A stretch of DNA of 64,000 bases from Candidatus Methanomethylicia archaeon (GCA_038845975.1 JAWBQF010000005.1:1-64000); one strand, 5' to 3'. Shown: positions 257 to 21,984, counted from the first letter of the stretch. Numbers and translations are program-made. The notes: generated by a model not told the origin, from the letters alone.

Positions 257-2635
257 ATGGTGATGTATTTGGAGAAGGGTCCAGTAAGGTTTTCACTTAA
301 GTCTCTTGAATCAACTGGGCTTTCAGTTAAGGATCTTGAGGTTATTATTGGAGGTATTGAGATTCCTGAGGTCTGGGAGCCTCTCGGTCCAACACCAATG
401 CCTAAAATATCTACGTTGAGATCATGGGATTTCAAGCTTCTAAGCAGGTATAAGCCATTCTACATGCCCTTCTGTGATCAATGTTGTCTCTGCACCTACG
501 GTAAATGTGATTTAACTAGAGGTAAAAGAGGCTCATGTGGTATAGATATGTCTACACAGCAGGGTAGAATAGTAACATTAGCATGTGCTATAGGTGCCTC
601 CACCCATACGTCTCATGCTAGACATATGCTTGATAGACTTATTGAAAAGTTCGGTGCTGATACTCCTATTAATCTTGGATCTGACGTCAATGTTGAAATG
701 CCTAATACAAGACTTATTGTAGGAGTTAAGCCTAAAACCCTAGGAGATTTATCCCAAGTATTAAGCTATGTTGAGGAGCAGATTGTACAAACAATATCAA
801 CTACACATACGGGTCAGGAGGCAAGCTATCTAGATTATGAATCTAAAGCTTTGCATCTAGGTATGCTTGATCATGTTGCAATGGAGGTTGCAGATGTAGC
901 TCAAATAGTTGCATTCAACTTTCCTAAAGGAGATCCAAACGCTCCATTATCTGAAATAGGTATGGGTCTGATAGATATTGCTAAGCCAATGATCCTACTC
1001 ATAGGACACAATGTTTCTGAAGGAATAGAAGTCATAGACTACATGAATAGAAACAATCTTGGAAAGCCAGGGGAAGTGTTGGAGGTTGCTGGTTTATGCT
1101 GTACAGCACATGATATTACAAGGTATGAAAGCTCAGCTAAAATCATTGGACCCATATCACACCAAATAAGATTCATTCGTTCAGGAGCTGCAGATACGCT
1201 AATAATTGATGAGCAGTGTATCACTAATCTATCACTTATAGAAGCTCAAAAAGTTAAAACTCCATTCATAGCAGTATCAGATAAAGCTGCCTACGGACTA
1301 CCTGACGTTAGTGAGTGGCCAATTGAAAAAATAGTTTCCTCCCTAACAGTTGGAGGATTAAGCGGTGTATTCTTACCAGATCTCGAAAAAGCAGCTGCAG
1401 TATCCGTAATAACAGCTCTACAAACTGCACCTTTAAGACAGAAGTTTAAAGTTATACCTGACGTTAAGGAGCTTAGCAATATAGCCTCAAAATGTACACA
1501 TTGTGGTAGATGCCGTAGAAACTGTCCGATAGATTTACCTGTAGATGATGCAATATACTCCTTAAAGCTTGGAGATTCAAGTAAGCTTGCTATGCTTCAT
1601 GATCTATGTCTCGGATGTGGTAGATGTGAATGGGAATGTCCAAACCATACACCTGTTCTAAGCCTCATGATGAAGGCTGCTGAAGCCAAAATTAAAACAG
1701 AAAAGTATAAGATAAGAGTTGGTAGAGGACCAATACTTGATACTGAAATAAGAGAGGTTGGAAGCCCAATTGTGCTCGGTGAAATACCTGGTGTTGTAGC
1801 CTTCGTTGGATGTGCAAACTATCCTGAAGGAGGATTAGATGTAGCATTAATGGCTAGAGAGTTTGCTAGGAGGAGATATATAGTAACAGTTTCAGGGTGT
1901 GCTGCTATGTCTATAGCTATGTATAGGAATGAGGAGGGCTTAACACCATATGAGGAGTTTTCAGGAGCTTTTGAGGCAGGAGGATTAGTAAATGTTGGTT
2001 CATGTGTTGCAAATGCTCACATATCAGGTGCCGCTATAAAGATTGCAAACATATTTGCTAGGAGACCACTAAGAGGAAACTATGAGGAAATAGCTGACTA
2101 CATATTGAATAGAGTTGGAGCCTGTGGAGTAGCATGGGGAGCCTACTCACAGAAGGCAGCATCAATAGCTACCGGCTTCAATAGGCTTGGAGTACCTGTT
2201 ATTTTAGGGCCTCAAGGATTAAAGTATAGGAGAATGTATCTTGGACGTGTAGAAGATAAGGAGTCATTCACAGTTTATGATGCTAGAACAGGCAGGAGAG
2301 TTTGGATAGGTCCAGCACCTGAACACTTAATAATATCTGTTGAAAACCGTAGGGAAGCTATGGTTATGATTGCTAAACTATGTCTAAGACCAAACGATAC
2401 AACAAAGGGAAGAATGATCAAGCTAACACACTACATAGATTTATACAAGAAAATCTATGGAAAACTACCTGAAGACCTACACTTATTCATAAGATCTGAA
2501 GCAGATATTCCCGTAACATTTAAGGATGAAGTTTTAAGCTATCTGGAGAAGATTGAATGGAAGCCATGGGAGCTACCATCAATAGATCCCTACTACTCAG
2601 AAAATGTATTTAAAAAGTATTATAGAGGTGGTTAA
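257..2635 (+). CDS. cdhA: ACDS complex alpha subunit (archaeal Ni-CO dehydrogenase)
   Basis: 792 aa. CDQCCLCTYGKC, GHN, CCTAHD, two ferredoxin motifs (CTHCGRCRRNCP, CLGCGRCEWECP), GSCVANAH, AWGAYSQKA. Confidence 0.97.
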   Translation: MVMYLEKGPVRFSLKSLESTGLSVKDLEVIIGGIEIPEVWEPLGPTPMPKISTLRSWDFKLLSRYKPFYMPFCDQCCLCTYGKCDLTRGKRGSCGIDMSTQQGRIVTLACAIGASTHTSHARHMLDRLIEKFGADTPINLGSDVNVEMPNTRLIVGVKPKTLGDLSQVLSYVEEQIVQTISTTHTGQEASYLDYESKALHLGMLDHVAMEVADVAQIVAFNFPKGDPNAPLSEIGMGLIDIAKPMILLIGHNVSEGIEVIDYMNRNNLGKPGEVLEVAGLCCTAHDITRYESSAKIIGPISHQIRFIRSGAADTLIIDEQCITNLSLIEAQKVKTPFIAVSDKAAYGLPDVSEWPIEKIVSSLTVGGLSGVFLPDLEKAAAVSVITALQTAPLRQKFKVIPDVKELSNIASKCTHCGRCRRNCPIDLPVDDAIYSLKLGDSSKLAMLHDLCLGCGRCEWECPNHTPVLSLMMKAAEAKIKTEKYKIRVGRGPILDTEIREVGSPIVLGEIPGVVAFVGCANYPEGGLDVALMAREFARRRYIVTVSGCAAMSIAMYRNEEGLTPYEEFSGAFEAGGLVNVGSCVANAHISGAAIKIANIFARRPLRGNYEEIADYILNRVGACGVAWGAYSQKAASIATGFNRLGVPVILGPQGLKYRRMYLGRVEDKESFTVYDARTGRRVWIGPAPEHLIISVENRREAMVMIAKLCLRPNDTTKGRMIKLTHYIDLYKKIYGKLPEDLHLFIRSEADIPVTFKDEVLSYLEKIEWKPWELPSIDPYYSENVFKKYYRGG

Positions 2636-3169
2636 ATGGCTGTAACACCATGGCAGCTTGGTAATATATTCGGTCCAAGAGTAGCAATCCAGGTTAAAGG
2701 TGATTCTGCAGGTAGAATGATAAGGGTTGCTAAAAACCCTCTCCTGATAGCTGGAGCAAACACTTTAAAGGAAATGGTTGGAGATAAGCCATACATAGAG
2801 TTCATAGTAGAACTATTAAAAGCTAGAAATATGCCATTTATTGCTACTGGAGCATCCTACAAGGAATTTATTGATAGAGGCCTAACCCCTATTAAAATCA
2901 TGAATGCAGTTGAAGTTGTTGATAGGCTTAGAGATCCGGAGTGGAGTATTAACGGTAATGGTCCACATGACCTAGTAATATTTGCAGGACTATCATACCA
3001 ATACCTATCTCAACTCCTCTCATGTATAAAACACTTTGCAACCCATCTAAGAACAATATGTCTAGATAGATACTATCATCCAAATGCAGATTTATCATTT
3101 CCAAATCTAACAGAGGAACAATGGATAGGAAACCTTAAATTACTCCTAGATAACGTAAAATCAAGGTGA
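2636..3169 (+). CDS. cdhB: ACDS complex epsilon subunit
   Basis: 177 aa abutting cdhA. AKNPLLIAG, LRDPEW..GNGPHDL, LDRYYHPNADLSFPN. Confidence 0.95.
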   Translation: MAVTPWQLGNIFGPRVAIQVKGDSAGRMIRVAKNPLLIAGANTLKEMVGDKPYIEFIVELLKARNMPFIATGASYKEFIDRGLTPIKIMNAVEVVDRLRDPEWSINGNGPHDLVIFAGLSYQYLSQLLSCIKHFATHLRTICLDRYYHPNADLSFPNLTEEQWIGNLKLLLDNVKSR

Positions 3170-4593
3170 CCTACATGTCAGGCTTTGAAGGATTTCCTGT
3201 TGAAATAAGTCCGGCGTTTGAAGGTCAAAGAGTAAGAAAGGAAGACATGTATATAGAGTTTGGAGGACCAAACATACCTAAAAAATTCGAGCTTGTAAGA
3301 GTGAAATCCCTTGAGGAGGTTGAAGACGGCTCAGTAAGAATCATTGGTTCAGATCTACTAGAGCTTAAGGAGGGGTCATCAAACCCATTAGGAATATTAA
3401 TAGAGGTTGCAGGCTCAAGAATTGATAGAGATCTTGAAGGAGTAATTGAAAGAAGAATACATATGTACACAAACTACATCGAGGGAATAATGCATCTAAA
3501 TCAGAGATATGATATATGGTGTAGAATATCAAAGAAATCCTTTAAGAAGGGGCTTACATCACTTAAGTGGTGGGGTCTCGGGCTTATAAGGCTATTCAAG
3601 GCTGAAATGCCCTACATAGAGAAAATGCAAGTTACATTCATAACAAATCCAGTAGAAGTAGAAAAAATGTTCGAGGAAGCTATGAAAATATATAATGAGA
3701 GGGATGCAAGAGCAAGAGGATTAAGGGATGAGGAAGTAGAATTATTCTATGGATGTGTACTATGCCAATCCTTTGCTCCAACACATGTATGTGTAATATC
3801 TCCTGAAAGAGTAAGTCTATGTGGAGCACTAACATGGTTTGATGCTAGAGCAGCAGCAAACATAGACCCCAAAGGACCAAACTTTCCAGTACCTAAAGGA
3901 GAACTCCTAGACCCGGTAAGAGGAGAATGGAGTGGAGTAAACGAAACAGTACAGAAAAGATCTCTAGGTGCAATAAAGAGAGTCTATCTCCACAGCGCTT
4001 TTGGGTATCCACATACATCATGCGGATGCTTTGAATGCATAATGTTCTACATACCTGAAGTTGATGGATTCGGAATTGTAGATAGAGGGTTTAAAGGAGA
4101 AGCAGTAAATGGATTATCATTCTCAACAATGGCATCACAAACAGGAGGCGGAATGCAAAGTGAAGGATTCTTAGGAGTAGGAATAGAATATATGAGATCA
4201 AGAAAATTCATACAAGCAGATGGTGGATGGAACCGAATAGTATGGATCTCAAGTACTCTAAGAAAAAGAATTGAAGACGCAATACCCCGAGAACTAAAAG
4301 ATAAAATACCAACAGAAATAGAAGTTAAAAACATAGAGGAACTAAGAAAATATTTAGCCGAACACAAACATCCACTAGCAGAAAAAATAATAGAGAAAAA
4401 ACCAGAAGCAAAACTTGAAGCTCCACCAACACCAATACCAACACCACAAATACCTGTAGCAATACCTCAAATACCAACACCACAAATCCTACCATCCATA
4501 CCAGCAGTTGGAGGTATAAAAATAGTACTGCAAGGAGCTAAAATCAAAATAGGTAAGCTTATCATTAAGAAGGCTGAAGGCGTAAAGCAATGA
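3166..4593 (+). CDS. cdhC: ACDS complex beta subunit (acetyl-CoA synthase)
   Basis: 475 aa. FYGCVLCQSFAPTHVC, SLCGA, HTSCGCFEC (A-cluster), Pro-rich linker and C-terminal beta-strand tail. Confidence 0.97.
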   Translation: MTYMSGFEGFPVEISPAFEGQRVRKEDMYIEFGGPNIPKKFELVRVKSLEEVEDGSVRIIGSDLLELKEGSSNPLGILIEVAGSRIDRDLEGVIERRIHMYTNYIEGIMHLNQRYDIWCRISKKSFKKGLTSLKWWGLGLIRLFKAEMPYIEKMQVTFITNPVEVEKMFEEAMKIYNERDARARGLRDEEVELFYGCVLCQSFAPTHVCVISPERVSLCGALTWFDARAAANIDPKGPNFPVPKGELLDPVRGEWSGVNETVQKRSLGAIKRVYLHSAFGYPHTSCGCFECIMFYIPEVDGFGIVDRGFKGEAVNGLSFSTMASQTGGGMQSEGFLGVGIEYMRSRKFIQADGGWNRIVWISSTLRKRIEDAIPRELKDKIPTEIEVKNIEELRKYLAEHKHPLAEKIIEKKPEAKLEAPPTPIPTPQIPVAIPQIPTPQILPSIPAVGGIKIVLQGAKIKIGKLIIKKAEGVKQ

Positions 4594-4724
4594 GCAAGGA
4601 AGCAACAAGTAGAGAGGAGCTGGATTTCTCGAAACTACTTCAAAAACTACTAGAGGAAAATGTTGAGCTTGAGCTTAGTAATGTAGAGATTAAGGCTGAG
4701 AAGCTTATTGTAAAGAGGATGTAA
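4590..4724 (+). CDS. Unannotated 44-aa micro-protein in the cdh operon, similar to the CdhD N-terminus and CdhC C-terminus
   Basis: ATGA overlap with the cdhC stop; TAA ends 3 nt before the cdhD ATG. MSKEATSREELDFSKLLQKLLEENVELELSNVEIKAEKLIVKRM. Confidence 0.75.
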   Translation: MSKEATSREELDFSKLLQKLLEENVELELSNVEIKAEKLIVKRM

Positions 4725-4727
4725 AGC

Positions 4728-6023
4728 ATGAAAGAAGGGGAGGGTAGAAAAACAGTATTTGATATTCTAAAAATGATTTCAGAATCGAAAGAGCTAGAGC
4801 TTGAAGATGTAGTTGTAGATGCTGAGGAACTAACTCTTGAACTATCCACAACCCCAGCAGGAAAACCAGAATACCTAAAACTTACACTCGAACCGATAAC
4901 ACCAGGAGCACAGAAAATAGAATTCCTAGTTGAGACAACACCGTACGGAGTAAGATTAGTAGCACCAACAGTACCAGTACCACCAGCAATACCAATAGAG
5001 AAACCTAAAGAATTCATAGAGCTAAAATTCGAGTATCCAGTAGTAGAATATCCTGGAAGAATAGTTGAAATAGTTTTAGGAGCAACAAGAGAGCAGGGTG
5101 GAACAAGAGGTAAAATAATAAAGATAGGAGGAGACAAATCACCACCATTCTATCTATTTGAATCAAAACCAGTAAATAGACCAGTAGTAGCACTAGATGT
5201 TTTCGATACTCCACCACCACTAGCAGGACCAGTAAAAAGGGCTTATCAAGACGTATTACAGGATCCAGCTGAATGGGCTAGGAAATGCATAAATACATAC
5301 AATGCAGATCTAATATCACTCCATCTAGTAAGTACAGACCCATTAGGGGAAGATAAGCCAGTAAAAGAAGCATTAAAAACAGTTGAAAACGTACTTCAAG
5401 CAGTAGATATACCAATAATAATAGGAGGATCAGGAAACCCACAGAAAGATGTAGAATTATTCACGCAAGCTTCAGAAGTATTTGCAGGGGAAAGGCTGGT
5501 AATGGCCTCAATAACACTAGACATGAACATACCTAAAGTAGTAGAACCAATAAGAAAGTATGAACATAATGCAATAGCATTAGCATTCATGGATATAAAC
5601 CAGGCAAAAGAACTATCAAGAAAAATACTTGATGCAGGGCTACCGAAAGACCACTTAATACTAGACCCAACAACAGGAGCGCTAGGATACGGAATAGAAT
5701 ATACGTATAGTACAATGGAGAGAATAAGACTTTCAGCATTAATGGGGGAGGAAACACTCCAAGTACCGCTAAGCTGTGCAGCAACAAATGCCTGGGCTGC
5801 AAGAGAAGCATGGATGAAGATAGATGAATGGGGACCGAGAGAGTTAAGAGGACCACTATATGAAGCAACAACAGCACTAGTAGGACTACTAGCAGGAGCA
5901 AACTTATTCATGATGATGCATCCATTAGCGATGAAAATAGTAAAAGCATTTGCAGAAGCAATGATAAGAGAAGAGAAAAAAGAGGAGAAACCATATTTAA
6001 ACTGGATAAAAACAAAGTTTTAG
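4728..6023 (+). CDS. cdhD: ACDS complex delta subunit (corrinoid Fe-S protein small subunit)
   Basis: 431 aa. LGATREQGGTR, IIIGGSGNPQKD, DPTTGALGYGIEY, NAWAAREAW, MMMHP. Confidence 0.96.
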   Translation: MKEGEGRKTVFDILKMISESKELELEDVVVDAEELTLELSTTPAGKPEYLKLTLEPITPGAQKIEFLVETTPYGVRLVAPTVPVPPAIPIEKPKEFIELKFEYPVVEYPGRIVEIVLGATREQGGTRGKIIKIGGDKSPPFYLFESKPVNRPVVALDVFDTPPPLAGPVKRAYQDVLQDPAEWARKCINTYNADLISLHLVSTDPLGEDKPVKEALKTVENVLQAVDIPIIIGGSGNPQKDVELFTQASEVFAGERLVMASITLDMNIPKVVEPIRKYEHNAIALAFMDINQAKELSRKILDAGLPKDHLILDPTTGALGYGIEYTYSTMERIRLSALMGEETLQVPLSCAATNAWAAREAWMKIDEWGPRELRGPLYEATTALVGLLAGANLFMMMHPLAMKIVKAFAEAMIREEKKEEKPYLNWIKTKF

Positions 6024-6032: not shown

Positions 6033-7475
6033 ATGCCTAAAATCCTAAGACCACTAGACGTATACAAACACTTACCAGGAACAAACTGTGGAAAATGTGG
6101 AGAAACAAGCTGCATGGCGTTTGCATCAAAACTCATAGAAAGAAAAGTAACATCGCAACAATGTACACCACTATATGAAGAACCAAAATACAGTGAAAAA
6201 CTACAGAAACTACTAGAAACAATAAGACCGCCAATAAAGGAAATATGGATAGGAGTAGAGCCAAACATCCTAAAAATAGGAGGGAAAGAAGTACTATACA
6301 GACATGAACTAACATGGAGAAACCAAACAGCAATAATAATAGATATACATGACGAAATGCCACCAGAAGAAATAAAGAAAAGAGTAGAGCTTGTAAACAA
6401 CTTCAAATTCATAAGAATAGGGAAAGAACTAACACTAGACGGAATAGCAATAAGATGCGTATCAGAAAACCCGGAAAAATACGCAAAAACAACAGCAGAA
6501 ATAATGGAAAAAACAAACAAACCAATAATACTATGCTCTCTAGACTCAAACATCCTAGAAGAAGCACTAATAATAGCAAACAAACGAAAACCACTAATAT
6601 ATACAGCAACAAAGCAAAACTGGAAGGAAATAGGAGAACTAGCATCAAAATACAAATGTCCAGTAGCAGTAACAGCAGAAAACCCAGCGACACTAAAATC
6701 ACTCTCAGCAACTCTAAACAAAAACTACAATGTAGACGACATAGTTCTAGACCCACAAATAAAAATAGGAAACATAGCAGAAACACTAAGCACAATAACA
6801 GCAATAAGAAGAGCAGCAATAGAAAAAGAAGAGAAGGAGCTAGGATACCCAATAATGACAGCGCCAGCAGCAATATGGAGTATAGAGGAAGGAGATGAAA
6901 ATGATAAAAAAACATTAGAATCAGTCATAGCATCAAACCTAATATCAAGATTCACAGACCTAATTATACTCCATACAACAGACACATGGACCCTAATACC
7001 AATAGTAGTATGGAGAGATTGCATATACACAGACCCAAGATTTCCACCAGGAGTAAAACCAGGCTTATACGAAATAGGAAAACCAAACGAATACTCACCA
7101 GTACTCGTAACTTCAAACTTCGCACTCACTTATCATCTAGTTCGTGATGACGTTGAAAAAGCAGGAATAAACGCATACCTAATAATCATTGACACCGAAG
7201 CCACAAGCCTCCAATCATCAGTAGCCGGTCGGAAAATTGATGAGGGTAAAATTGTTGAGGCAATTAGAGAAGTGAAAATTGGTGAGAAGACCAAGGTTAA
7301 AGCTCTTATTCTACCTGGTTATGCAGCCAGGCTTGCAGGGGGAGTAGAGGATGCATTAATGGGGGATGGATGGACTATTTTCGTTGGTCCTAGAGATAGT
7401 GGTGAGATAGGCGCTTTTTATGAGAAAGTATTTAAACCATGGTTGGAAGAGAAACTAGCTAAAGAGAAGAAGTAA
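6033..7475 (+). CDS. cdhE: ACDS complex gamma subunit (corrinoid Fe-S protein large subunit)
   Basis: 480 aa. LPGTNCGKCGETSCMAFA..C, IYTDP, SPVLVTSNFALTY, VGPRDS. Confidence 0.96.
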   Translation: MPKILRPLDVYKHLPGTNCGKCGETSCMAFASKLIERKVTSQQCTPLYEEPKYSEKLQKLLETIRPPIKEIWIGVEPNILKIGGKEVLYRHELTWRNQTAIIIDIHDEMPPEEIKKRVELVNNFKFIRIGKELTLDGIAIRCVSENPEKYAKTTAEIMEKTNKPIILCSLDSNILEEALIIANKRKPLIYTATKQNWKEIGELASKYKCPVAVTAENPATLKSLSATLNKNYNVDDIVLDPQIKIGNIAETLSTITAIRRAAIEKEEKELGYPIMTAPAAIWSIEEGDENDKKTLESVIASNLISRFTDLIILHTTDTWTLIPIVVWRDCIYTDPRFPPGVKPGLYEIGKPNEYSPVLVTSNFALTYHLVRDDVEKAGINAYLIIIDTEATSLQSSVAGRKIDEGKIVEAIREVKIGEKTKVKALILPGYAARLAGGVEDALMGDGWTIFVGPRDSGEIGAFYEKVFKPWLEEKLAKEKK

Positions 7476-7798
7476 AAATTTCTCTAACAACTTATATCTT
7501 TGTAGAGGTTGGGCTTACTGAGCCTTTGGCTTTAGGTTTTTCACTAGACTTTCTCCTTATTACTTTAAGAAATTTTTAATTTTCCTCCCGACTATAAACA
7601 CAAATATAAGCATTTCTTTTGTCTGTTATCTTCTTTTATATCATCAATATTTAATGTGATGTCTAACTCTAGTTTGTTTAAAATACTCCTAATGTTGCAT
7701 CATCTAAGAAGTCTTTAGTTTCTTTGCCTAGTCTTCCTTTAATCGTGTTTTACACTTCTTCAATAGTCTCCTTGAAGAATTGTAGACATAGGAGGAGA

Positions 7799-8170
7799 AT
7801 GACTAAGCTAAAACAGATTTATAGATGTAATATCTGTGGAACATAGTTGAGGTTTGCATACCAGTGCCAATACACTTATATGCCGTGATCAGCTAATGGA
7901 ATTGCTTAAAGAAAACCGAGGATGTAGAACTTGAAAAATGTCCCTATCATAGAAAAGACTGAAATAGGCTCCCTGGTTGGGATAAGTAATGCCCCACACC
8001 CTATAGAGGAGAAACACTATATCGAGTGAATAGAATTAACTGCTGACTGGAAATACTATAGGAAACTTCTAAAACCAGATGAAAAACCGGAAGCATTCTT
8101 TGAGGTTAAAGCAGAGAAAGTTTCAGCAATGGAATACTGCAATATTCATGGACTCTGGAAATCTAAATAG
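7799..8170 (+). pseudogene. Desulfoferrodoxin (1Fe/2Fe superoxide reductase) pseudogene
   Basis: GGAGGA RBS then MTKLKQIYRCNICG, followed by frameshifts. HPIEEKHYIE*IEL with an internal stop. C-terminus [10 protein letters not shown]. Confidence 0.8.
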
Positions 8171-8306
8171 TCTCTCATTTTTATGTTAAATTTTAAGTAG
8201 CCAATTAGAAATAGCATGAATACTATTAGAACTCATCATGTGTAACTAGAAATAATTGAGTATGCTAAGATTTATAAATTTCTAAGTTAATATTGAAGGG
8301 TTAATA

Positions 8307-9575
8307 ATGCATCAGGAATATCCTATTCATAAAATTAATTCCTTAGTGAAAGAAAGAATAGATGAGGCTATAAAGCTATTAAAGGAGCTAATAGAAATAC
8401 CTACTGAAAACCCTCCAGGAAATAACTATTTAGAAATGGCTTATTTACTTAACAATGTTCTAAATAAGTTAGGATATAAAACCGAAGTTGTAAAGGTTCC
8501 ACAAGAAGTATCAGATAGATTAGCACCACATGGTAAAGGATTACCGAGAGTAAATGTAGTTGGTTATCTACAAGAGGGAGTGGGAGGTCCTTTAATTCAT
8601 TTGAACGGCCATTTTGATGTTGTTCCAGCTGGATTACATTGGTCTTTTAATCCTTTTAAAGGAATAATTAAAGATAATAAGGTTTATGGAAGAGGAGCTT
8701 CTGATATGAAGTCTGGAATAGTAACTCAAATATTTAGTGTTGAAGTTTTAAGGGAAGCTATGAAGGAGCTTGGTTATAAATTAAACGGCACCATAGTTCA
8801 AAGCTTTACTTGCGATGAGGAAACAGGAGGATTTGCTGGAGTAGGTTACCTAGTAGATAAGGGGTACATAAGTAAAAACACTAACTTCATCTTAATCACT
8901 GAACCTACAGATTCTAGGTATATTGTAGTAGGGCATCGAGGTGTTATTTGGCTTAAAGTAAAAGTTTATGGAGAGAAAGCTCATGGTGCAGTAGCTCAGC
9001 TTGGAGTAAACGCTATAGATAGAGCACGTTTAATTCTAAATAAATTTGCTGAGTTGAACTTACATTTAAAATCCAGAGTTTCAGAAAACATCTTACCTAT
9101 TGAAGCTAGCTACGCTACATTAACACCTACCATGATTAATGCAGGTTTAGCTTCAAATATTGTACCTGATATTTGTGAAATAGTGTTTGATAGAAGGCTT
9201 TCTATGAATGAAAAAGTGGATATAGCTATGGAAGAAATGAAGAAAATAGTTGAAGAAACATTGATTAAAGATTATGATATTGAAATGTTGATGAGTGTTG
9301 AACCTGTAAAAGTGCCATTAAGCACTATGTTAATAAATACTTTAAGTAAATCCATAGAGCTAATAGTTGGAGAGAATCCTAGATATTATTATCTTGCAGC
9401 CACTATGGATATGAAATTCTTCGTAAGAAATACAGGTATAAATGAGTGTGTAGTATATGGACCAGGTATAATGAGTGTAGCACATATGACAAACGAATAT
9501 GTTCCTATTGAAAACATCATTACTTCAATAAAAGTTTTATCATTAACATTAAGTAAACTGTTTAAAACTATTTAA
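8307..9575 (+). CDS. M20 family metallopeptidase/deacylase (ArgE/DapE-like)
   Basis: HFDVVP, GRGASDMKSG, DEETGG, EPT, AH..NE. TTTATAAA box at 8271. Confidence 0.9.
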   Translation: MHQEYPIHKINSLVKERIDEAIKLLKELIEIPTENPPGNNYLEMAYLLNNVLNKLGYKTEVVKVPQEVSDRLAPHGKGLPRVNVVGYLQEGVGGPLIHLNGHFDVVPAGLHWSFNPFKGIIKDNKVYGRGASDMKSGIVTQIFSVEVLREAMKELGYKLNGTIVQSFTCDEETGGFAGVGYLVDKGYISKNTNFILITEPTDSRYIVVGHRGVIWLKVKVYGEKAHGAVAQLGVNAIDRARLILNKFAELNLHLKSRVSENILPIEASYATLTPTMINAGLASNIVPDICEIVFDRRLSMNEKVDIAMEEMKKIVEETLIKDYDIEMLMSVEPVKVPLSTMLINTLSKSIELIVGENPRYYYLAATMDMKFFVRNTGINECVVYGPGIMSVAHMTNEYVPIENIITSIKVLSLTLSKLFKTI

Positions 9576-9923
9576 AAGATTTATGCATAAATTCATCCCA
9601 AATAAGTTGAATCACGTTAAGCCTAAATGCTCCTATAAATTATTTATGTTTACTTTAATATAATCTTCCTGATGCTTCAGTATTCATAGTTAATGTGTAA
9701 CATATGTTACCAAGTCCTTAGAATGTTACTAAACCTTAATAGACTGATTAACTATCCAGTAATCATTAAGTTTTCAGATAGCTTCTATAGTTGAATATTA
9801 ACACACATTGCTAATAATCAAGCATTACATAGAAAATGGAAAATAGATAAAATAGAAAATTCATATCATAAGAGAAGTAATAAAAATGATGTAATCTCTA
9901 AATTTAGCAGAAGAATGTAAATA

Positions 9924-10573
9924 GATGCCGTCAAGTTATTGGTGTTGTTAGCGGTATTTTTAAGGTTTGGTGCGGTTTATGAAGTTGTATAATAGGGTGA
10001 AGAGTTTGATCTTGGAGATTATTCTTACTGAAAGTTGTTGAAGAATTGTCTGTTCTAGCTTTCATAGTTCTGAACTAGCGTTCAATGCATTCTCTTTCTC
10101 CGAAGGTTTTTATGAATTCATTTAAGGACTTGTAATGCTTCAAGATACTATGATCCCTATCAATGAGGCTTATTCATACATGCCCAAATCCTAGGGGAAG
10201 TTTCTGATGAAGATATTTCTACGTCGTGAAGTCCATATGGCTAGCAATTTACAGTATCAACATCTATTATAGCTATAGCATAATCCTATAAGCCTTAATC
10301 TTTGCCTCGTTAACAGTCATCATCTGCCTACCCCCAACATTGGCTCTTAACTACTTCAGCTTCTTAACCCAAAGCTTAACAGCCTCGTGACTGCATGGAA
10401 TGCCCCCAAAACATAGGTTATATCTCTATAGCTTAAACTGGCTATGGTAAGATCACTCTAACCTTCAAATACAGCGAAGCCTATTAATCCTGAATAAACC
10501 ACTATCCTTAAGAGTTTTGAGAAGCTACCTCCAAAGCAGCTTCTCAAAACCCTAAGAATAACCTGACAATATC
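9924..10573 (-). mobile_element. Decayed IS6-family element
   Basis: Minus strand reads TFGERECIER*FRTMKART (IS6 DDE C-terminus). Imperfect TIRs GATGCCGTCAAGTT / AACCTGACAATATC. Flanks ATGTAAATA / ATGTAGATA look like a target duplication. Confidence 0.75.
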
Positions 10574-10630
10574 ATGTAGATACGTTGTAAAGTTTTTATA
10601 GTCTTAAGTACTAAAGTACTTTGGTATTTA

Positions 10631-11275
10631 TTGGAAAAAGTGATTTTGAAATTATTAAGGTGGAGATTCCGAGATGGCTGGCTGAGAAATTTCGTAAGTA
10701 TGTTGCCGAGAAGTATAGTTTTAGAAAGGGAGTACTTTCAAGAGCTATAGCTGACATGATTGAAAGAGCTCAGTATTAGAGGTGGAACTGGAGCTGTAGA
10801 TGCTATAGTGAGCTTGGGCTTATCTTCAGACTATAGTTGGGAGGATGAGGATCCTGTTGAAGTTTTTAGAAGACGATACAGCCTATCTAATAGATGCTAA
10901 CATAATACTTGAAGTTCTCTATAAGAGAAGCTGCTGGGGGAAATCCTATAAGTTATTGAGCATGGTGAAGAAGGCTCTCTGAAGGCATTTATGCTTCATT
11001 TTGCTATTCATGGAGTATCAGCTATTCTCAGTAAGCCTAGCTTAGCAGCTAAATTGCTTTCAGAGACCATAACATGGCGTGGCTTAACAATAGCTAACCT
11101 ATCTCTACATGAAGAGCTTATCGCATGTAAACTTGCAGCTGAAACAAGGCTTGGCTTCGACGATGGATTACATTACTACTTTGCAAAGCACATGGGTATT
11201 TCAATCATAAGTTTTGATAAAGACTTCGATAGCCTCGACATTAAAAGATTTGAACCTCACGAAATAATAGTCTAA
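10631..11275 (+). pseudogene. Degraded VapBC-type toxin-antitoxin pair (RHH-like antitoxin plus PIN toxin)
   Basis: IKVEIPRWLAEKFRKY..LSRAIADMIE, then YLIDANIILE out of frame with 10991..11275 (LGFDDGLHY..IISFDKDFD), which are PIN motifs. Boundaries approximate. Confidence 0.7.
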
Positions 11276-11499
11276 ACCTTCACAATATATTAAGAGTTAA
11301 TTATTGTGATCAAGAGGTAATTTAAGCTTCTAATTGATCCTATTTAGCCTTAACCATATCCTTGTGATATCGAAGTCTTTGAATGTAGATCTCGATGTGC
11401 AAGATATCTATAAAACCTATATAGTCCTATGATTTCCACCTCTCATAATCAGTACTAAAATAGCTGAAACAATGAAAAACTGGAAAACATCAAGCCTTC

Positions 11500-11748
11500 G
11501 AGCTAAGGAATTCGATAGAGTGATTGTTTCAAACACTTAAGGATCGAACAAAATGCTTCTACAACAATTTCCAGACAGGAAGGGATTATTCAAGATCGAA
11601 TTATTCCTCAAGCTTTTCATTCTCTGGTACAACTGGATAAGGCCACACCAAGCCCTAGAAAACCACCAGCAATAACATAACATCTAAACGTAACAGCATC
11701 AAAATAACAAGCAACAAAATTTATATAACTTCTTAAGTTGTCAGGCCC
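11500..11748 (+). mobile_element. 3' remnant of an IS6-family element
   Basis: FQTLKDRTKCFYNNFP and WYNWIRPHQAL-like remnants; ends in TTAAGTTGTCAGGCCC, matching the TIR of 36082..36673. Left boundary not found. Confidence 0.65.
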
Positions 11749-11755
11749 TAAATAA

Positions 11756-11813
11756 TGCCTGTGAACTTAAGCCATCAGCTACATATGATTTTATATTTAA
11801 AGTTCACAAAACC
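11756..11813 (-). mobile_element. ~60-bp MITE, copy 1 (inverted relative to the other copies)
   Basis: TGTGAACTT..AAGTTCACA TIRs. Reverse complement matches 13773..13832 and 56638..56697. Degenerate flanks CTAAATAA / CTGAGTAA. Confidence 0.75.
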
Positions 11814-11885
11814 CTGAGTAAGAGGGCAAAATTTTTATTTGTTTCTTCTAAGAAAGCTAAATAGCTTAAGTAGTGTTGATGTGAG

Positions 11886-12359
11886 ATGGGGATTCTTCAG
11901 TTGAAATTGATTAAGGAGTTATTAGATGGTAATAAGATATTCTATAATGTTTCAGAGCATGAGCCGGTTTATACCTCAGAGCAGGCAGCAAGAGTTAGAG
12001 GAGTGGATTTGAAAACTGGTGTGAAGGCTCTTGTGCTTAGAAGGGAAGATGGAGGTTATGTTATGGGGCTGGTTGCTGGTGATAGGAAGATAGATCTTAA
12101 AAAGCTGGCAGGAGTTGTTGGAACTAAGAAGTTGCGATTAGCTTCCCCACAAGAGGTGCTGGAGATAACTGGATGTGAAGTCGGCTCAGTACATCCCTTT
12201 GGTAATTTGCATGGACTCCCTGTCTACTTGGACAGCTCCATACTGGAGAATGATATGGTAAATTTTAATGCTGGACTACATACAGTTTCTATTCAAATGA
12301 AGGCAAAAGACTTGATTAAGGTAATTAAACCAGTAATTGATAGTTTTTCAAGACTTTAA
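11886..12359 (+). CDS. YbaK/ProX-family aminoacyl-tRNA deacylase
   Basis: HEPVYTSEQAA, VKALVL, GCEVGSVHPFG, FNAG. Confidence 0.88.
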   Translation: MGILQLKLIKELLDGNKIFYNVSEHEPVYTSEQAARVRGVDLKTGVKALVLRREDGGYVMGLVAGDRKIDLKKLAGVVGTKKLRLASPQEVLEITGCEVGSVHPFGNLHGLPVYLDSSILENDMVNFNAGLHTVSIQMKAKDLIKVIKPVIDSFSRL

Positions 12360-12438
12360 GATGGATTTTGCTCTCTTTCTCTTAATTAGCTTTTATTTGT
12401 CTCTAATGGTCATAATGGGGGTTAAGAAATTGGATAAA

Positions 12439-12645
12439 ATGGATATAAAATCCTTCACAAAATCTACAATTAAGGAGGTAAGCCCAATAATAGGCGAAAA
12501 TAAAGTTGTTACTGAATATACTTTTGAAGGTATAACAATAGATGGGCTAAAAGTAATCTATAAAGGTTGAGAGTTTAAATCAAGAAGATGTACAGGAGTA
12601 TTACGATGTTTAGATATAGTTAAGCAGGTGACAGGGGATGGCTAG
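12439..12645 (+). pseudogene. Possible internally deleted GMP synthase subunit B-like fragment
   Basis: MDIKSFTKSTIKEVSPIIGENKVV resembles the GuaA-B N-terminus; the remainder is broken. Weak. Confidence 0.3.
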
Positions 12646-13461
12646 CTAAGAGAACCTTAAACCCCTTAAAATCAATATAAGAAAAGATTAAAATAGCTAG
12701 TTTTTCTTTAGTTCCTTAATTCCTCTAATGCTTTATTCAATTGTTCACTATAGCTCTCAAACTCCTCCTTAGCCTATTCGATTCCTGCTGTCAACTCTTT
12801 TCTCAATTCTTTCAAAACCTCTTCGGCTAGGGTTTTCTTAAACATGAAAAATGGATGTAGAGCGTTAATCGTACACTTTATTGATGCATAGGAATTTCCG
12901 TTTTCAGTAACTTGTCTTTTTCCCTAATGGCTGTTGCCATAATTGCTAGAATAGCTAGCATAACTAGCTATATGAGAGAGATGATCAAGGTCTTAAAAGA
13001 CGATTGGCCAGCTCCTCGTCTACCCAGTAGATTGAATGAGATTAAATGAGAACATAGTTTTGTGATACTAGAGTGAATATTTACCATATGCCTTGTCCTA
13101 TTATTTGTCATAACTTTATTAAATAGATCATCATCAACGATTATGAAATTTGAAGCTGCGAAATTATTTCATTGTTTTCATTAATTGCTTTAATCGTTCC
13201 AGATATATGATTGAGCCTAAAACTGTTTCTCTACTGGACTAGCGGTTAAAAAGACTGACCCTTAAAAATACTAATTTAGACAGATATAGAGAGCAATATT
13301 ACTTTAATTGAAAGTGATAAATCTTCTAGGTCATAAAGGACCTTGTAAGCTAGTACAGCCTTTGCCTCGACTATTCTTTCAGCCGTATTCTTGCCCTCAT
13401 TAATAAAACTAATTAGCACGATTATTTCACTGAAATAGTTAAAGCTTTCATTTCTTCTGGC

Positions 13462-13735
13462 CTAGCGGAATACTATAATGAAAAAGGCATATTTCAAAAC
13501 GCACTTTACGGATTCATCTTTGGAATTATAGGATTCACAATTGCCATATTTATATTTGTAATATTCTTTACAATGTTTTCTACACGAATTATGTGGAGAG
13601 CAGTAAGGATACCAACTGAATTTACAGGCATTACTTTAATTGCAGGCCTAATTCTTAGCTTGGTTATACTTGTTATATTTCTCATTTTACAGGCTGTATT
13701 CTATAAAAAATCATTTACCCTTCTTGCTGAAAAAT
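13462..13735 (+). repeat. Exact 274-bp copy of the internal part of the DUF996 gene (22123..22396)
   Basis: Base-by-base comparison from CTAGCGGAATAC to GCTGAAAAAT showed no mismatch; no start codon context. Confidence 0.92.
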
Positions 13736-13772
13736 AGAAACATGGGGGTTTAAGGGTTCTCTACCTATAGCT

Positions 13773-13832
13773 GGTCATGTGAACTTTAGATGTAGAAGAC
13801 ATGTATAGTTGATGACTTAAGTTCACAAAGCT
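13773..13832 (+). mobile_element. 60-bp MITE, copy 2
   Basis: TIR cores TGTGAACTT / AAGTTCACA. Perfect 8-bp target duplication CTATAGCT at 13765..13772 and 13833..13840. Confidence 0.85.
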
Positions 13833-14032
13833 CTATAGCTAGTATTAACAACGTAAAGGATGGTTAATCATTAATCCATCATCAATAATAATCTTCCCCT
13901 AACGGCCTAAAAGAAACAAAAATCTAATAACTTCTACTCAAAACCATTAACTCATAAAACTCCATAAAAGCAGTAAAAAACTTAAATACTTTGAAAATAT
14001 CTCTTAGTTAGTGAATGCCGTTGTAGTAGTGT

Positions 14033-14602
14033 TTGTTTGGCTTATGGTGGTTCTTTATGGCTAATTTAGTATTGAGAAAAGATTTGGGAAAGTTTCTTTA
14101 TTGTTCCAGTTTGCTTGAGGAAAGAGTTGCAAAAGCTTATGAGCATACCGCTAAATTAGTTGAGGATAAGCTTATTGGCTGTCTCTTAGGTTTTATTGCT
14201 AGTGACTCCCTAAAGCATGCTGAATGCTTTAAGATGATTTATGAATGGCTATCCTCCAATATGGAGGTTAGTTTTGAAGTGTGTAAAGAGGTTTGGGGTG
14301 AAATCTGGAAGACTCTTGTAATGGATGCTGAAAAATTTCTAGGTAAGAGTGCAATAAGTACTGAAGAACTTACTTCATTGATAAACGGGTTAGTGAGGTT
14401 TGAAAGCTTTGTTACTGAAGAATACTTGACGGTGCTTCATATAAAATTGGTCGAGTTGATGGTTGATGAAGCTAGAATAAATCTTGACACTTTCAAGACT
14501 GTATTTGAATGGATTATTGAAGATGAAAAGAGACATGAGCAAATTCTTAAAATAATCGAGAACATACTGACAAAAAGGGAAAATAAATCAACTTCTCTTT
14601 AA
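14033..14602 (+). CDS. Ferritin-like (rubrerythrin-type four-helix) protein; likely start ATG 14057
   Basis: Paired motifs LEE..A..Y..DSLKH and FE....EEY..EDEKRHE. Confidence 0.7.
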   Translation: MFGLWWFFMANLVLRKDLGKFLYCSSLLEERVAKAYEHTAKLVEDKLIGCLLGFIASDSLKHAECFKMIYEWLSSNMEVSFEVCKEVWGEIWKTLVMDAEKFLGKSAISTEELTSLINGLVRFESFVTEEYLTVLHIKLVELMVDEARINLDTFKTVFEWIIEDEKRHEQILKIIENILTKRENKSTSL

Positions 14603-15169
14603 CTTCCGCTTTTCAACTTTTCATCTATTGCTCTAAAAATTGGATTTAACCCATATTTCTATGGTTTTCCCATAACATCTGTAATGGCTGCAGCATCGCC
14701 CTAACTGTGAAAACAGCCAAACGCCTAAATAAGGAAGGGAATTTAATTGCTGCACTCGCTATATTGATTATAGCTGACTGTCTTGTATTCTCCATGCTTG
14801 AACTAATATAGTAAAGGTAAAAGCCATCGACATTAGGAGTATATCAAAAGCTGTAATAGCCGAAAAAGCCATAACTTCACTAAATATTTCAGGTGAGTAA
14901 ATATTAGCCAAGAGAAAATATGCTCCCTAAAGGTTAGAGTATAATACTTAGTGTTGCTTCTGTAATACAGGCTAAGGTAAAAGAATCTTGAAGACCCAGG
15001 CATTCATTCCTGTAGGTCTTCACCTCAACATACTGTGAAATTATGCTTGGCAAGTAGTATTTGCAGCCATTACAAGAGCTTGAAAAAGCATTATAACAGA
15101 AAAGACTTGCCTAGAAACTGAAACACACAACCTATTATAACGGTTAAGCCAGTAAGTATTAGCAATATT

Positions 15170-15625
15170 ATATGTTATGAATACAAACTAGCTTAATAGT
15201 GAAGAAACATCGAGATATGAATTCTAGAATGGTGAAAATTTAAGGAGTCCAATTTTCGAAGGAAGAATATGCCATACTGAAATTTTTAAACTTGAGTTCA
15301 ACAAGCCTACAGCTCAAAACTCAAGTGAGGATTATGCAAACATTGTTGTGGATGATAGATGGGAATATAGAAAGCGTACTTATGAGATTGAGAATGAAGA
15401 CCTTAGAAAATTAGATGAATATGAAGGATACTCAATTCATTAAATGATAGCTTAGAGGTTAGCGTGAAGTTAAATATTGGTCAAACCATAAAGGCAATTA
15501 CTTATATTGCTAGACCAAATATAACTTAAGAAGAGTTTAAACCTACAAGAAATTATCTTAGTTATTTAATGAAAGAATGCTGTCTTATTGAGCCACTCGC
15601 AAGTTTCTTAAATGTAAGGACGTAG
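15170..15625 (+). pseudogene. Gamma-glutamylcyclotransferase (AIG2-like) pseudogene
   Basis: FKLEFNK..YANIV, YEIENEDLRKLDEYEGY, AITYIA..KPTRNYL across frameshifts and stops. Boundaries approximate. Confidence 0.55.
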
Positions 15626-15840
15626 TGAAGAACATTACCATAGTTCAAAACTAGTATCTTTACACCAATTAATTACTGTCTTTCTGTAAGGATAATCTGG
15701 ATCAAATAAGAGTTCACCTATTGCTAATAGTTCGTCTTCTTTCAAAACCTGCTTGATTTCAAACAAGCTTTCTTCTTATTAGGAATTTCACCTAATACTG
15801 TAATGCTATAAGCCTTAAATCTTGCTTCCAAGCTTTGTGC

Positions 15841-15980
15841 ATGGAGTTTAGAAAGCTTTATGATGATGAGCAGAAGCCTAATAAGTTTTCTCTCCCTCCA
15901 AAAGTCAAGATTAATAGACTTAGGATTGATGATAAATATGCAATAAACAGCATCTTATACGTTCTTGTTACCTGTATTAA
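15841..15980 (+). mobile_element. 5' remnant of an IS5-family transposase
   Basis: MEFRKLYDDE..LPPK..RIDD...NSILYVLVT is a degenerate copy of the ORF at 19743..20021. Confidence 0.75.
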
Positions 15981-16082
15981 GACTTATAGCATTACAATTA
16001 AGCATCATCATTACTTCTATTCTTTCTGTTAAGAAACACTAAAAGGACAATATTGTTTTAATCATGCTTATGTCTTTGAAGC

Positions 16083-16580
16083 TTACCATAATAGATTCAT
16101 TTTTTCAAGGATATGGAAGGCTAGTGAAAAGTAGAAGAGTATTGTCAATGGTATGTGTAGTGTTCTCCAATAATCTTTTATGAATTTGATTTTCACATAT
16201 CGTCCCAATATCCCGCTTATAACTATTACAGTCATTAGGAGGAAAGCAAAGAAGCTTATGAAATATCCTGGTCTTGGAATCTGTATTTTGTTAATTATGT
16301 GAAATGCAACGAACACTATGGAAAGTGTTCCTGCTATGCAGTGGACTAACAGCCAAGTTCTAATACTTTTTGGGAAACCTCTCTTTAAAGCTGAGTAGAA
16401 GGCTGAAATTGCAAAGACCAGGAAGCCCGCCCATCCAAAACAGTGAGCAACATCCCTTGGAAAAATTCTATAAGATCCTCTTTGTCTATGTTTAGACTCA
16501 GGACCTATATTAAAGGTTATAAGGCTTGCTAAAAGCAGCAGAAATAGAATAAAGCCCATCAAGAACAAAGCTTTACTCAA
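16083..16580 (-). CDS. Membrane protein with four TM histidines (cytochrome b / ferric-reductase-like TM domain)
   Basis: About 5 TM helices. WLLVHC..AFH and WRTLHI..AFH paired His. Confidence 0.6.
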   Translation of the reverse strand: MSKALFLMGFILFLLLLASLITFNIGPESKHRQRGSYRIFPRDVAHCFGWAGFLVFAISAFYSALKRGFPKSIRTWLLVHCIAGTLSIVFVAFHIINKIQIPRPGYFISFFAFLLMTVIVISGILGRYVKIKFIKDYWRTLHIPLTILFYFSLAFHILEKMNLLW

Positions 16581-16812
16581 TTTTCTCCCCCTTCAATAGA
16601 GAGATGCTTTTTATAAAATTTATGCTCTGTAAACCTAGAATCTCCAGTAATAATTGAACTTCTTAGTAATGAATACTTTGAATAACTACTCTGAAGGTAT
16701 AAATATTATCTTTGTCCCTTCAAAGCTATTCCATGGATAATCTCCGGAAACCTTAAACTGTAACATATAGCAATACTAATACTGTCAATACTGACTTTGA
16801 TTCCTAAATCTT

Positions 16813-17270
16813 TTAGAAAATATTTAGCCCGATCCCCATTAAGACTAGGATTCCTCCCACTACTAGGGAAGTATTTATTTCTTCTCTTAAAAATAGAACT
16901 CCCATGAAAGCTGTTAAAACCGGAACGATTAACTGGAATACTCCTCCCTGGAATGCATGAATCTTCTTCATTATCATATGCCAGAGGACATAGCTTAAAG
17001 CAGTACTAATCATTCCTAAGAAGAGCGTTAAGGCTAAGCTTGTTAAAGAAATATTCTCCCATAAATTCTTTCCTAGCATAGAATAGGCAAAAGGAGTTAC
17101 AGCTAGAGGTCCTCCTCCAAATAATAGGAAACCATTGTAAGTGTAGGTAAAGGAGGATTTAAATTTTCGACCATGAACTGAATATGCTCCCAAAGATGCT
17201 CCTGTAAGAGCCATTAGAAAAACTCCTAGTAGAGTAATTGACTTTAAGCCACTGGAAGTAACTTCCTAAA
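16813..17270 (-). pseudogene. C-terminal half of an EamA/DMT transporter (5' truncated)
   Basis: LGMISTALSYVLW..FQLIVPVLTAFMGVLFLRE...GGILVLMGI is one EamA repeat; upstream half missing. Confidence 0.65.
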
Positions 17271-17499
17271 ACTCCTATTAACCCAAGTATCTGCCCAAAA
17301 ACCATGTATGTTTTTAATTGAGAATTAAAAACTCTTTAAATTCAAATTTCTTCCTTCTTAATTTCTCCCCTCCTATCATAAATATTACTACATCACTCTC
17401 TAAAATTTCTATTGCTAGATAATTATTAAAGATAGTAATTATGAGGATCTATCATACAATAACATTGAATATGTAACTTACTTGACAAAGTAATTCATT

Positions 17500-17763
17500 A
17501 ATGAGGTTAAACTATTGTGATGGAGACAAGTTCTTATTGATAGTGTATCAAGGCTTTCCAACCTTTTTAAGAACTTGAACCATCATCATTACTTTTCAGT
17601 GAGCATAGTAGGGTAAAATACTCATTGTTTAGTAGAGAACTAAAGTATTCTCAACCAGTAACATCAAATCCAGTAGACTACTAGATGATAGGAGGACGCT
17701 TAAGTGCTAAAATCTATTCATAATATACTACACTAAAAAGATGATGTTAAGTTGTCCCCGTCC
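17500..17763 (+). mobile_element. Highly decayed IS6-like right end
   Basis: Ends GATGATGTTAAGTTGTCCCCGTCC, nearly identical to the right end of 36082..36673. Left boundary approximate. Confidence 0.45.
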
Positions 17764-17820
17764 AGCTGTTCTAGGATAAAATTTAAATGATTGTTTTAAC
17801 CTAGTTCTTGAGGATGATTT

Positions 17821-18963: not shown

Positions 18964-19227
18964 ATTAATTTAAGTTCTCTATAGTGCACTCTTATATTTT
19001 CTCTTGTCATATTATGATGTTAGTCTTAAAGTATTTAATTGTTAGAGTATGTTAAACTAAGACTTTAAATTGGCAAACCTAGTAAATATATAGTATTTAA
19101 GATTCTGAAGGTGTATTTAGAGATTTAGGAAATAGGGTAGTTAATAAAGGGCTGGGAAACCGTAGATAATGAGTAGTTAGTGATTTGCGTGATCTAGTAT
19201 TTGAATTTGTCTAATCTATTTAACATT

Positions 19228-20067
19228 GAACTCATCTGAAAACCCTCAGCAATATTATTATGCATGCTATTTGTATGAATCCTAGGAATGTTGATGCGAG
19301 CTTCTCGTATCTTATGGTTATTCTTCTGAATGCTTTTATCCATGCGAAGAATCTTTCAACAGCGCTCCTCATGCTCTTATATGCCTTCCCATCGAGCCTG
19401 TATGGTCTTCCATGCTTGGGCTTACGCCTCGGGTTGACATCTATGTTTGCTTTTACTCCTCTACGCTTGAGGTATTCTCTAATCTCTCTAGCGTCGTATG
19501 CTGAGTCTCTGTAACCTCTTTAGGTCTACTCCTAGGCCTACCATGCTTAACCCTCACATCTTCAAGGAGCTTTATGAAGTGTTTTGAGTCATGCTCATCG
19601 CCAGGTCCTGCTTGAACGCTTAAAGGTAGGGCTTCACGTGATACAACAGCATGTATCTTTGTACCCTTAATATGCTTATATCCATCATATCCAACTATCT
19701 CCCCCTTTCCCAGCCTTTATAGTGGTGCTGTCAACGGCAACCCTATCTAGGCTTACCCATAGAATATCCCTTATCTATTAATGCTTTGAAAACATTAGCC
19801 CATACACCTTTAATACTCCAACGCTTAAACCTATCCCAAGCAGTCTTATATGAGCCATACTTAATTGGTACATCCATCCAACGGCAACCAGTAACAAGAA
19901 CATATAGGATTCCGTTAACAATAATCCTATCGTTAATCCTAGGCCTACCAGTCCTAGCCCTAGGAGGAAGCAAAAACCTAATAAGCTCCCACTCACTATC
20001 AGTAAGCTCCCTAAACTCCATAACAAAACCTTACTCAGAAACATTTAAATAGTTTTCAGATGAGTTC
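19228..20067 (-). mobile_element. IS5-family element (840 bp), transposase frameshifted
   Basis: Perfect 16-bp TIR GAACTCATCTGAAAAC and 3-bp duplication ATT on both sides. ELTDSEW..GRPR..NGILYVLVTGCRW, VDSTTIKA.KGG, GTKIH, DSAYD, VERFFAWIKAFRRITIRYEK in shifting frames. Confidence 0.93.
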
Positions 20068-21937: not shown

Positions 21938-21984
21938 TTTTTACATTTAGAAATCTTTATAAGCTTTGTGATTAAGGTTGCTTA

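Follow-up and report, generated by a model that had tools for sequence, protein, structure and literature searches.

At the start of the stretch of DNA analysed here (64,000 nucleotides (nt) from a Candidatus Methanomethylicia archaeon, GCA_038845975.1, JAWBQF010000005.1:1-64000; hereafter the window) lies a complete operon for acetyl-CoA decarbonylase/synthase (ACDS), which by sequence has the order cdhA-cdhB-cdhC-[ORF]-cdhD-cdhE, the element in brackets being an open reading frame (ORF) of 44 codons at 4590..4724 (plus strand). The question that this locus raises is whether so short a frame is a gene and, if so, what its product might do in a complex of five subunits. A sequence-only reading of the window had proposed that the ORF repeats a terminal motif of CdhC and CdhD and encodes a candidate sixth, tethering subunit. 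Here we report that the ORF is a genuine, conserved and selected gene of the ACDS operon, that sequence profiles identify its product as a paralogue of the N-terminal module of CdhD, and that the small protein is probably (at a rough probability of 0.6) a non-catalytic sixth piece which docks in the ACDS hub via tail-module contacts, be it as an adaptor or as a cap.

The assembly of the five ACDS subunits into a particle of ~2 MDa is a long-standing gap, and the only model, given in a preprint of July 2026 (PMC13370988), relies on termini that are conserved and disordered and have putative partners. According to the text of that preprint, the N-terminal region of CdhD scaffolds the ~2 MDa ACDS complex of M. 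acetivorans, the conserved N-terminus of CdhA (residues 1-43) and C-terminus of CdhC (residues 401-470) are proposed to bind this region, a crosslink between CdhA E15 and CdhC K452 is reported, and further structural elements, so far uncharacterised, must in the authors' opinion stabilise the intact supercomplex. Literature searches brought up no small protein described from this place in the operon, and the text of PMC13370988, extended-data figures and supplements aside, mentions none.

Position and translational coupling of the small ORF

The large genes of the operon were assigned by curated NCBIfam and Pfam cut-offs, which all five pass. The small ORF is preceded by cdhC, the beta subunit or acetyl-CoA synthase (ACS) of 475 amino acids (aa) (3166..4593, plus strand; TIGR00316, PF03598 and PF19436), and followed by cdhD, the small subunit delta of the corrinoid iron-sulfur protein (CoFeSP) of 431 aa (4728..6023, plus strand; NF003375 over residues 7-430, TIGR00381). 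Its ATG start codon (4590-4592) lies on the cdhC stop codon TGA (4591-4593) in an ATGA overlap, and its stop codon TAA (4722-4724) is followed, after a gap of 3 nt, by the cdhD ATG at 4728; coordinates and coupling had been given correctly by the sequence-only reading. Shine-Dalgarno-like sequences, putative ribosome-binding sites, precede both starts: GAAGG (4576..4580, plus strand) within the 3' end of cdhC, 9 nt 5' of the small ORF's ATG, and GAGGA (4715..4719, plus strand) within the 3' end of the small ORF itself, 8 nt before the cdhD start. Judged from this layout, the small ORF is translated in tight coupling with both cdhC and cdhD.

Translation between cdhC and cdhD, across overlapping or near-overlapping junctions, would also suit a transient assembly factor, i.e., a peptide that shields the sticky terminal motifs of nascent CdhC or CdhD and stays outside the mature complex. 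In methanogen operons the maturation factor gene cooC often occupies the position between cdhC and cdhD. CooC is, however, a P-loop NTPase of ~250 aa, whereas the small protein of 44 aa has no P-loop and no sequence likeness to it, matches none of the Pfam and none of the NCBIfam families at E <= 0.01, and bears no likeness to chaperone or maturation families. Gene position being the evidence that speaks for an assembly factor, we consider this role quite improbable.

Conservation and selection

Labels of the type G000 denote genomes, and those of the type f1 denote GTDB families, in the comparison set used throughout. When 61 genomes of the same class were searched in six frames with the peptide, a 44-aa frame of 80% identity turned up in the same genus, along with weaker small frames (51-66 aa) beside cdh genes in other families; the same search also matched the starts of ~405-aa frames (CdhD) and the ends of ~480-500-aa frames (CdhC). 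With an 8-row profile, small cdh-linked frames (48-66 aa) were found in 9 of 62 genomes of the class and in 11 of 401 sampled genomes of the phylum. An ORF of the same family is present between cdhC and cdhD in 12 of the 33 junctions read, spread over five GTDB families, a proportion that is not an unbiased frequency because the junctions were reached via matches to the small-ORF query or profile. The carriers within the class are G000 and G001 (f1), G011, G020, G029 and G032 (f6), and G003, G006 and G030 (f3); those beyond the class are G164 (f11) and G261 and G351 (f38).

The frame of the ORF relative to cdhC and cdhD varies among the genomes, yet the amino-acid core is kept, also between lineages of low and of high GC content (f3 being GC-rich). 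A read-through fusion with cdhD, with which the ORF shares its frame in the window, was considered and rejected, because the frames differ in other genomes. The junctions to cdhD in the relatives include a 1-nt gap (G001), an ATGA overlap (G032) and a TAATG overlap (G029). The copies of f6 and f38 start with TTG behind GGTGG(G/A), and the GGTGGG ahead of the TTG in the f6 relatives is Shine-Dalgarno-like.

The ratio of non-synonymous to synonymous substitution rates (dN/dS) was determined by the method of Nei and Gojobori for 11 pairs, six of which were saturated at synonymous sites. The five measurable values are 0.062 for G000/G001 (17.8 synonymous versus 10.2 non-synonymous differences over 44 codons), 0.070 for G029/G020, 0.10 for G261/G351, and 0.20 and 0.23 within f3. 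A metagenome contig representing a strain variant differs from the window at 49 positions over 3598-5851, two of which are inside the ORF (4631 and 4679), both third-position and synonymous. Synteny of the cdhC-cdhD gap in relatives and dN/dS values of 0.06-0.23 thus bear out the 44-codon ORF as a genuine, conserved and selected gene of the ACDS operon.

Two further observations concern the operon in other families. On contig C44 of G006 (f3), cdhA is found ~13 kb away from cdhC-small ORF-cdhD and on the opposite strand, so that the small ORF remains with cdhC and cdhD even where the operon is split. In family f4 (32 genomes of the class), only a ~627-aa frame resembling carbon monoxide dehydrogenase (CODH) and matching CdhA residues ~56-129 was seen; searched with these queries, the f4 genomes gave no matches linked to cdhC or cdhD, and ACDS was not found in them.

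Relationship to the termini of CdhD, CdhC and CdhA

The small protein consists of a predicted amphipathic helix (residues 13-23; 4626..4658, plus strand) and an alternating hydrophobic/charged motif (residues 24-43; 4659..4718, plus strand). Its closest paralogue is the N-terminal module of CdhD (residues 9-39; 4752..4844, plus strand), composed of a helix (residues 10-19) and an acidic motif (residues 20-39); the other counterpart is the basic tail motif at the C-terminus of CdhC (residues 450-469; 4513..4572, plus strand), which follows a Pro-rich linker and is conserved across the 31 CdhC tails compared. The translations show Pro-rich linkers next to both the CdhC and the CdhD motif, as asserted by the sequence-only reading. 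Aligned without gaps, ORF residues 24-43 are identical to CdhD residues 20-39 at 8 of 20 positions (BLOSUM62 score 35, reached by 2 of 20,000 shuffles) and to CdhC residues 450-469 at 7 of 20 (score 38, reached by 0 of 20,000). The likeness of the ORF's tail to the ends of both proteins, as observed in the sequence-only reading, is confirmed. In plain BLASTP, the peptide gave trivial matches only to CdhD and CdhC (E 41 and 0.5, respectively); profiles and ungapped scoring were needed.

Profiles were therefore compared with hhalign, the inputs being 20 small proteins, 30 CdhD N-termini, 31 CdhC tails and 20 distinct CdhA N-termini from the fetched loci. The small proteins matched the CdhD N-termini with a probability of 97% (E 1e-10, score 46.7) over 31 columns including the helix, whereas column-shuffled controls had a mean score of 8.9 and a maximum of 14.6 (0 of 100 reaching 46.7); the helix likeness to CdhD that had been noticed by eye therefore holds at the profile level. 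Regarding the CdhC C-termini, the probability was 93% and the score 33.6 over 28 columns (shuffle maximum 13.5, 0 of 100). CdhD N-termini and CdhC C-termini matched each other at 11% and a score of 15.7, over 17 columns in the same register (shuffle maximum 10.2). In six-frame searches, the small-ORF profile matched CdhD N-termini in genomes devoid of the ORF (E down to 1.3e-7 per genome), and it matched the CdhD N-terminal module of its own genome at E 0.034. By these profile comparisons the small protein is paralogous to the CdhD N-terminal module, and in sequence space the peptide bridges this module and the CdhC tail; common descent with the CdhC tail is less certain than with CdhD.

The similarities and differences can be spelled out. 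The helix and a motif of the type E-L-E-L-x-D/N-V-x-I-x-A-E-x-L of the CdhD N-terminal module recur in the small protein within the same operon, and the small protein agrees with the module consensus ..LL.LL..A.ElELeDVeI.AEEL. (helix, then acidic alternating motif). In CdhD, however, the module is joined by a linker to a TIM barrel and has Asp at the turn, whereas the small protein is a separate cistron with its own start and stop, is not scored by NF003375, and has Asn or Gly at the turn. With the CdhC tail, the small protein shares an alternating motif of ~17 residues in the same register (up to 76% over 17 residues against f2 tails); the tail itself carries the strongly basic motif GG.kI.LkGAKI.I.KLIIKK at the very end of ACS, without a helix ahead of it. 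The likeness to CdhC spans only the second half of the small protein, which is not part of CdhC and has a CdhD-like first half.

The N-terminus of CdhA had also been said to begin with a similar strand. A weakly similar alternating motif is indeed present at CdhA residues ~21-37 (317..367, plus strand) and kept in 22 aligned CdhA N-termini, and the hhalign scores of CdhA N-termini against each of the other three profiles (14.4-16.5, 5-18%, 11-18 columns) exceed the shuffle maxima (13.4-14.2; 0 of 60); the likeness is above shuffles but weak.

Two observations on family f38 stand apart. The CdhC tail of this family (loci L053 and L056, of G261 and G351, respectively) holds two tandem copies of the strand motif with a Gln/Pro-rich spacer between them, and the small protein and CdhD of f38 share an unusual version of the motif, I-x-I-D-K-L, which could reflect either co-variation of partners or a separate duplication.

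Age of the duplication

The sequence-only reading had taken DNA similarity to cdhD as a sign of a local duplication. Over the motif, the nucleotide identity to cdhD is 32 of 60, with just 8 of 20 third positions identical, which indicates that the duplication is old; paralogy thus stands, and a recent tandem origin is rejected. The turn residue is N or G in all 12 of the small proteins compared, whereas in the CdhD encoded by these genomes it is D (10) or S (2). The mean core identity is 36% between small proteins of different families, 34% between small proteins and CdhD of their own genome, and 29% between small proteins and CdhD of another family, values that fit a single duplication as well as repeated ones.

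These data bear on the possibility that the peptide is functionless, the ORF being either a spacer which acts only in cis by coupling the translation of cdhD to that of cdhC, or a decaying partial duplicate of cdhD. Such a reading would account for the Shine-Dalgarno-like sequence of cdhD inside the ORF and the overlap with the cdhC stop, for the absence of the ORF in many lineages, and for a copy (G164) that has no canonical start. A spacer or remnant would not be expected to show the dN/dS values of all five measurable pairs, an amino-acid motif kept in different frames and at very different GC content, or a family-specific turn residue in 12 of 12 copies, and the third positions show that the duplicate is not young. 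The reading is contradicted by the selection data and disfavoured; among the explanations weighed here it is the least probable.

Predicted structure and charge

For CdhD residues 1-95, AlphaFold2 predicted a helix (residues 10-19), an unfolded motif (residues 21-40) and three strands (residues 48-81), at a mean predicted local distance difference test (pLDDT) value of 64.8. The helix of the small protein (residues 13-23, from a 20-row alignment, pLDDT 74-80 over the block) aligns to the CdhD helix in hhalign. As the motif is unfolded in the models, which are of moderate confidence only, it seems to need a partner. A relative of the peptide was not found in the PDB at E <= 10, and the PDB relatives of CdhD are bacterial-type chains only, which begin at about residue 103 of the window protein, i.e., after the N-terminal region. 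A four-chain prediction of the complex, run with alignments for the CdhD N-terminus (95 aa), the CdhC tail (36 aa), the CdhA N-terminus (50 aa) and the peptide, and without controls, reached scores of 0.11 and 0.23 where 0.32 is the mark; it speaks neither for nor against binding.

By residue counts in the translated sequences, the tail of CdhC is basic (7 K, 1 E) and the CdhD module acidic (net charge about -7), and the two are thus complementary in charge. In the peptide of the window, an acidic first half is followed by a basic end. Among the small proteins, those of f1 and f6 have a second half that is basic like CdhC and unlike CdhD, and those of f3 are acidic throughout.

The CdhD segment that follows the motif (4848-5012 in the window) differs by lineage. 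It is a helix-like A/L-rich stretch in f5 and f2, a longer helix-like stretch in f3 and G164, and, in f1 and f6 including the window, a conserved segment of the pattern Y/F-x-K-L-S/T-L-E-P ... K-I-E-F-L-V-E ... G-V-R-L with three predicted strands. The type of segment shows no clean correlation with the presence of the small ORF.

Proposed role

The small protein would be the tether module alone, a short amphipathic helix plus an alternating motif of ~17-20 residues, which in the canonical subunits is carried by a flexible Pro-rich linker at the N-terminus of CdhD. Produced alongside CdhC and CdhD, it would dock, via the same helix and strand contacts as the attached modules, into the hub that joins CODH, ACS and CoFeSP, where it would add or occupy docking sites and be non-catalytic. 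An adaptor role is plausible because the small protein keeps both the helix and the strand motif; as an adaptor, it would pair its helix with the CdhD helix and its motif with the end of CdhC or CdhA. From sequence we infer three things: an interaction function of the module, binding of the free protein to the hub, and an effect of this binding on the complex. The earlier interpretation is thus partly supported, i.e., a conserved, selected and coupled gene repeats a motif of CdhD and CdhC, and weakly of CdhA, the same termini that the text of PMC13370988 proposes as a tether; the shared beta-sheet hub, the binding of the peptide to it and the capping or tuning of complex size are proposals of that interpretation, and the duplication is old and not recent.

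A stronger version of the docking model can be formulated, in which ACDS has six subunits in several hot-spring lineages of the Thermoproteota and the protein of 44-55 aa is a stoichiometric core piece, its helix bundling with the CdhD helix and its strand motif pairing with the CdhC tail and/or the CdhA N-terminus, thereby doubling the docking sites of the CoFeSP scaffold. This version is offered tentatively, and we would not expect it to be correct in full.

The same module might, instead of building the complex, restrain it. MicroProteins, a concept from eukaryotes, are small proteins reduced to the interaction domain of a larger relative, with which they compete for partners. Like them, the small protein is a single putative interaction module without any other domain, and it is paralogous to a larger protein encoded next door; in this case the two are co-operonic and expression is apparently constitutive. 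As a competitive cap or decoy, a free look-alike of the CdhD module, CdhC-like in its second half, would fill partner sites and so limit the size of the oligomer or loosen ACS or CODH from the CoFeSP scaffold, acting as a modulator and not as a building block, which was the sequence-only reading's own proposal. Its resemblance to the acidic module of CdhD as well as to the basic tail of CdhC agrees with this, as does its dispensability in many lineages, and the TTG starts in some lineages could mean a lower output. The tight coupling and constitutive place in the operon suit a stoichiometric partner equally, however, and a regulatory feature was not seen. The cap or decoy fits the same data equally well as the adaptor role; as a specific mechanism we regard it as rather unlikely. 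A further small protein that acts on a large complex of C1 metabolism, MtrR on the Mtr complex of M. mazei, is also below 100 aa (PMC13370731), and is not described as a copy of a subunit's own terminus.

Several points weigh against a docking sixth piece in general. The small ORF is absent from 21 of the 33 junctions read, where cdhC abuts cdhD, and also from G063, though this genome belongs to the same genus as the carrier G164; the gene is therefore not a general requirement of ACDS, and the way in which the junctions were collected (see above) lends the 12 positive ones no weight as a frequency. The copy of G164 has neither ATG nor GTG nor TTG before the helix; together with G063 this indicates that the gene is dispensable and lost at times. 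In the AlphaFold2 model, the peptide alone is a helix with an extended tail at a mean pLDDT of 69.9. The oligomerisation element tested in the text of PMC13370988 is a coiled-coil helix (CdhD residues 45-68, construct 43-88) and not a beta-sheet, and by position the copied module would fall within the first ~42 residues of CdhD, upstream of that coiled coil; the interaction role of the module is itself only proposed, in the same preprint. Both the binding to the hub and the production of the peptide are predictions.

Database members, start site and transcription data

In a collection of 5.8 billion proteins, 28 members of the family were found (26-55 aa), named, where a name is given at all, 'hypothetical protein' and labelled Candidatus Nezhaarchaeota or Nezhaarchaeales, or Nitrososphaerota archaeon; gene callers thus already predict the small gene. 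The context cdhB-cdhC-ORF-cdhD-cdhE occurs in two named genome records, Candidatus Culexmicrobium profundum and an uncultured Bathyarchaeia archaeon, and the scan of genome contigs confirmed only two loci among 438 pattern matches. A phmmer search with the single peptide against 1.84 billion representatives yielded only the homologue from the same genus and one spurious repeat protein of 2518 aa. A profile search for longer (fused) forms gave none at E <= 0.01, which is weak evidence, and the ESM Atlas gave no usable match.

Close variants of the peptide of the window (P0016-P0019, 89-97% identical) are called with only 39 aa, 5 residues fewer, their first codon corresponding to residue 6; the N-terminal end hence varies, and translation may in truth begin elsewhere than at the ATG at 4590. 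Metatranscriptome contigs (X15, X20) are near-identical to parts of cdhC, and as none spans 4590-4724 they are uninformative on the expression of the ORF. DNA near-identical to 3166-6023 (at least 0.68 of the sampled words) was observed in hot springs metagenome runs and in one run of a coded organism, from several studies other than those flagged as the possible source of the window, and the lineage accordingly seems widespread in hot springs.

Other genes of the window

The remaining genes of the operon, all on the plus strand, are cdhA for the CODH alpha subunit of 792 aa (257..2635; TIGR00314, E=0), cdhB for the epsilon subunit of 177 aa (2636..3169; TIGR00315, PF02552) and cdhE for the large subunit gamma of CoFeSP of 480 aa (6033..7475; NF003195, PF03599 and PF04060). 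Downstream, the region 7400-22000 (~14.6 kb) is overlapped by just eight ORFs of at least 110 aa, a low density of long ORFs that is unexplained. They include an M20 peptidase, a protein with a tRNA-editing domain, a 133-aa EamA fragment, a DUF996 protein, and a 380-aa ORF with no Pfam match. An Rfam match or a tandem repeat was not detected in 7500-22000.

Significance

A gene so far called 'hypothetical protein', or not called at all, is added to the core carbon-fixation operon of archaea labelled Culexarchaeia, Nezhaarchaeia and Bathyarchaeia. The natural occurrence of the module as a free-standing protein supports, independently and on evolutionary grounds, its standing as a functional unit of its own, and the 44-residue peptide is a reagent for direct binding tests against the ends of CdhC, CdhD and CdhA; since the tether hypothesis becomes directly testable, the finding is of interest to the ACDS field. 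If ACDS of these lineages does have six subunits, the peptide would be among the further, so far uncharacterised elements by which the megadalton complex is stabilised, and the terminal motifs of CdhA, CdhC and CdhD together with the peptide would be one ancient, repeatedly reused assembly module. The free-standing tether module is so far restricted to a few hot-spring lineages of the Thermoproteota, in which it may be a previously unrecognised sixth component of ACDS, and the small gene suggests that the architecture of ACDS differs between archaeal lineages.

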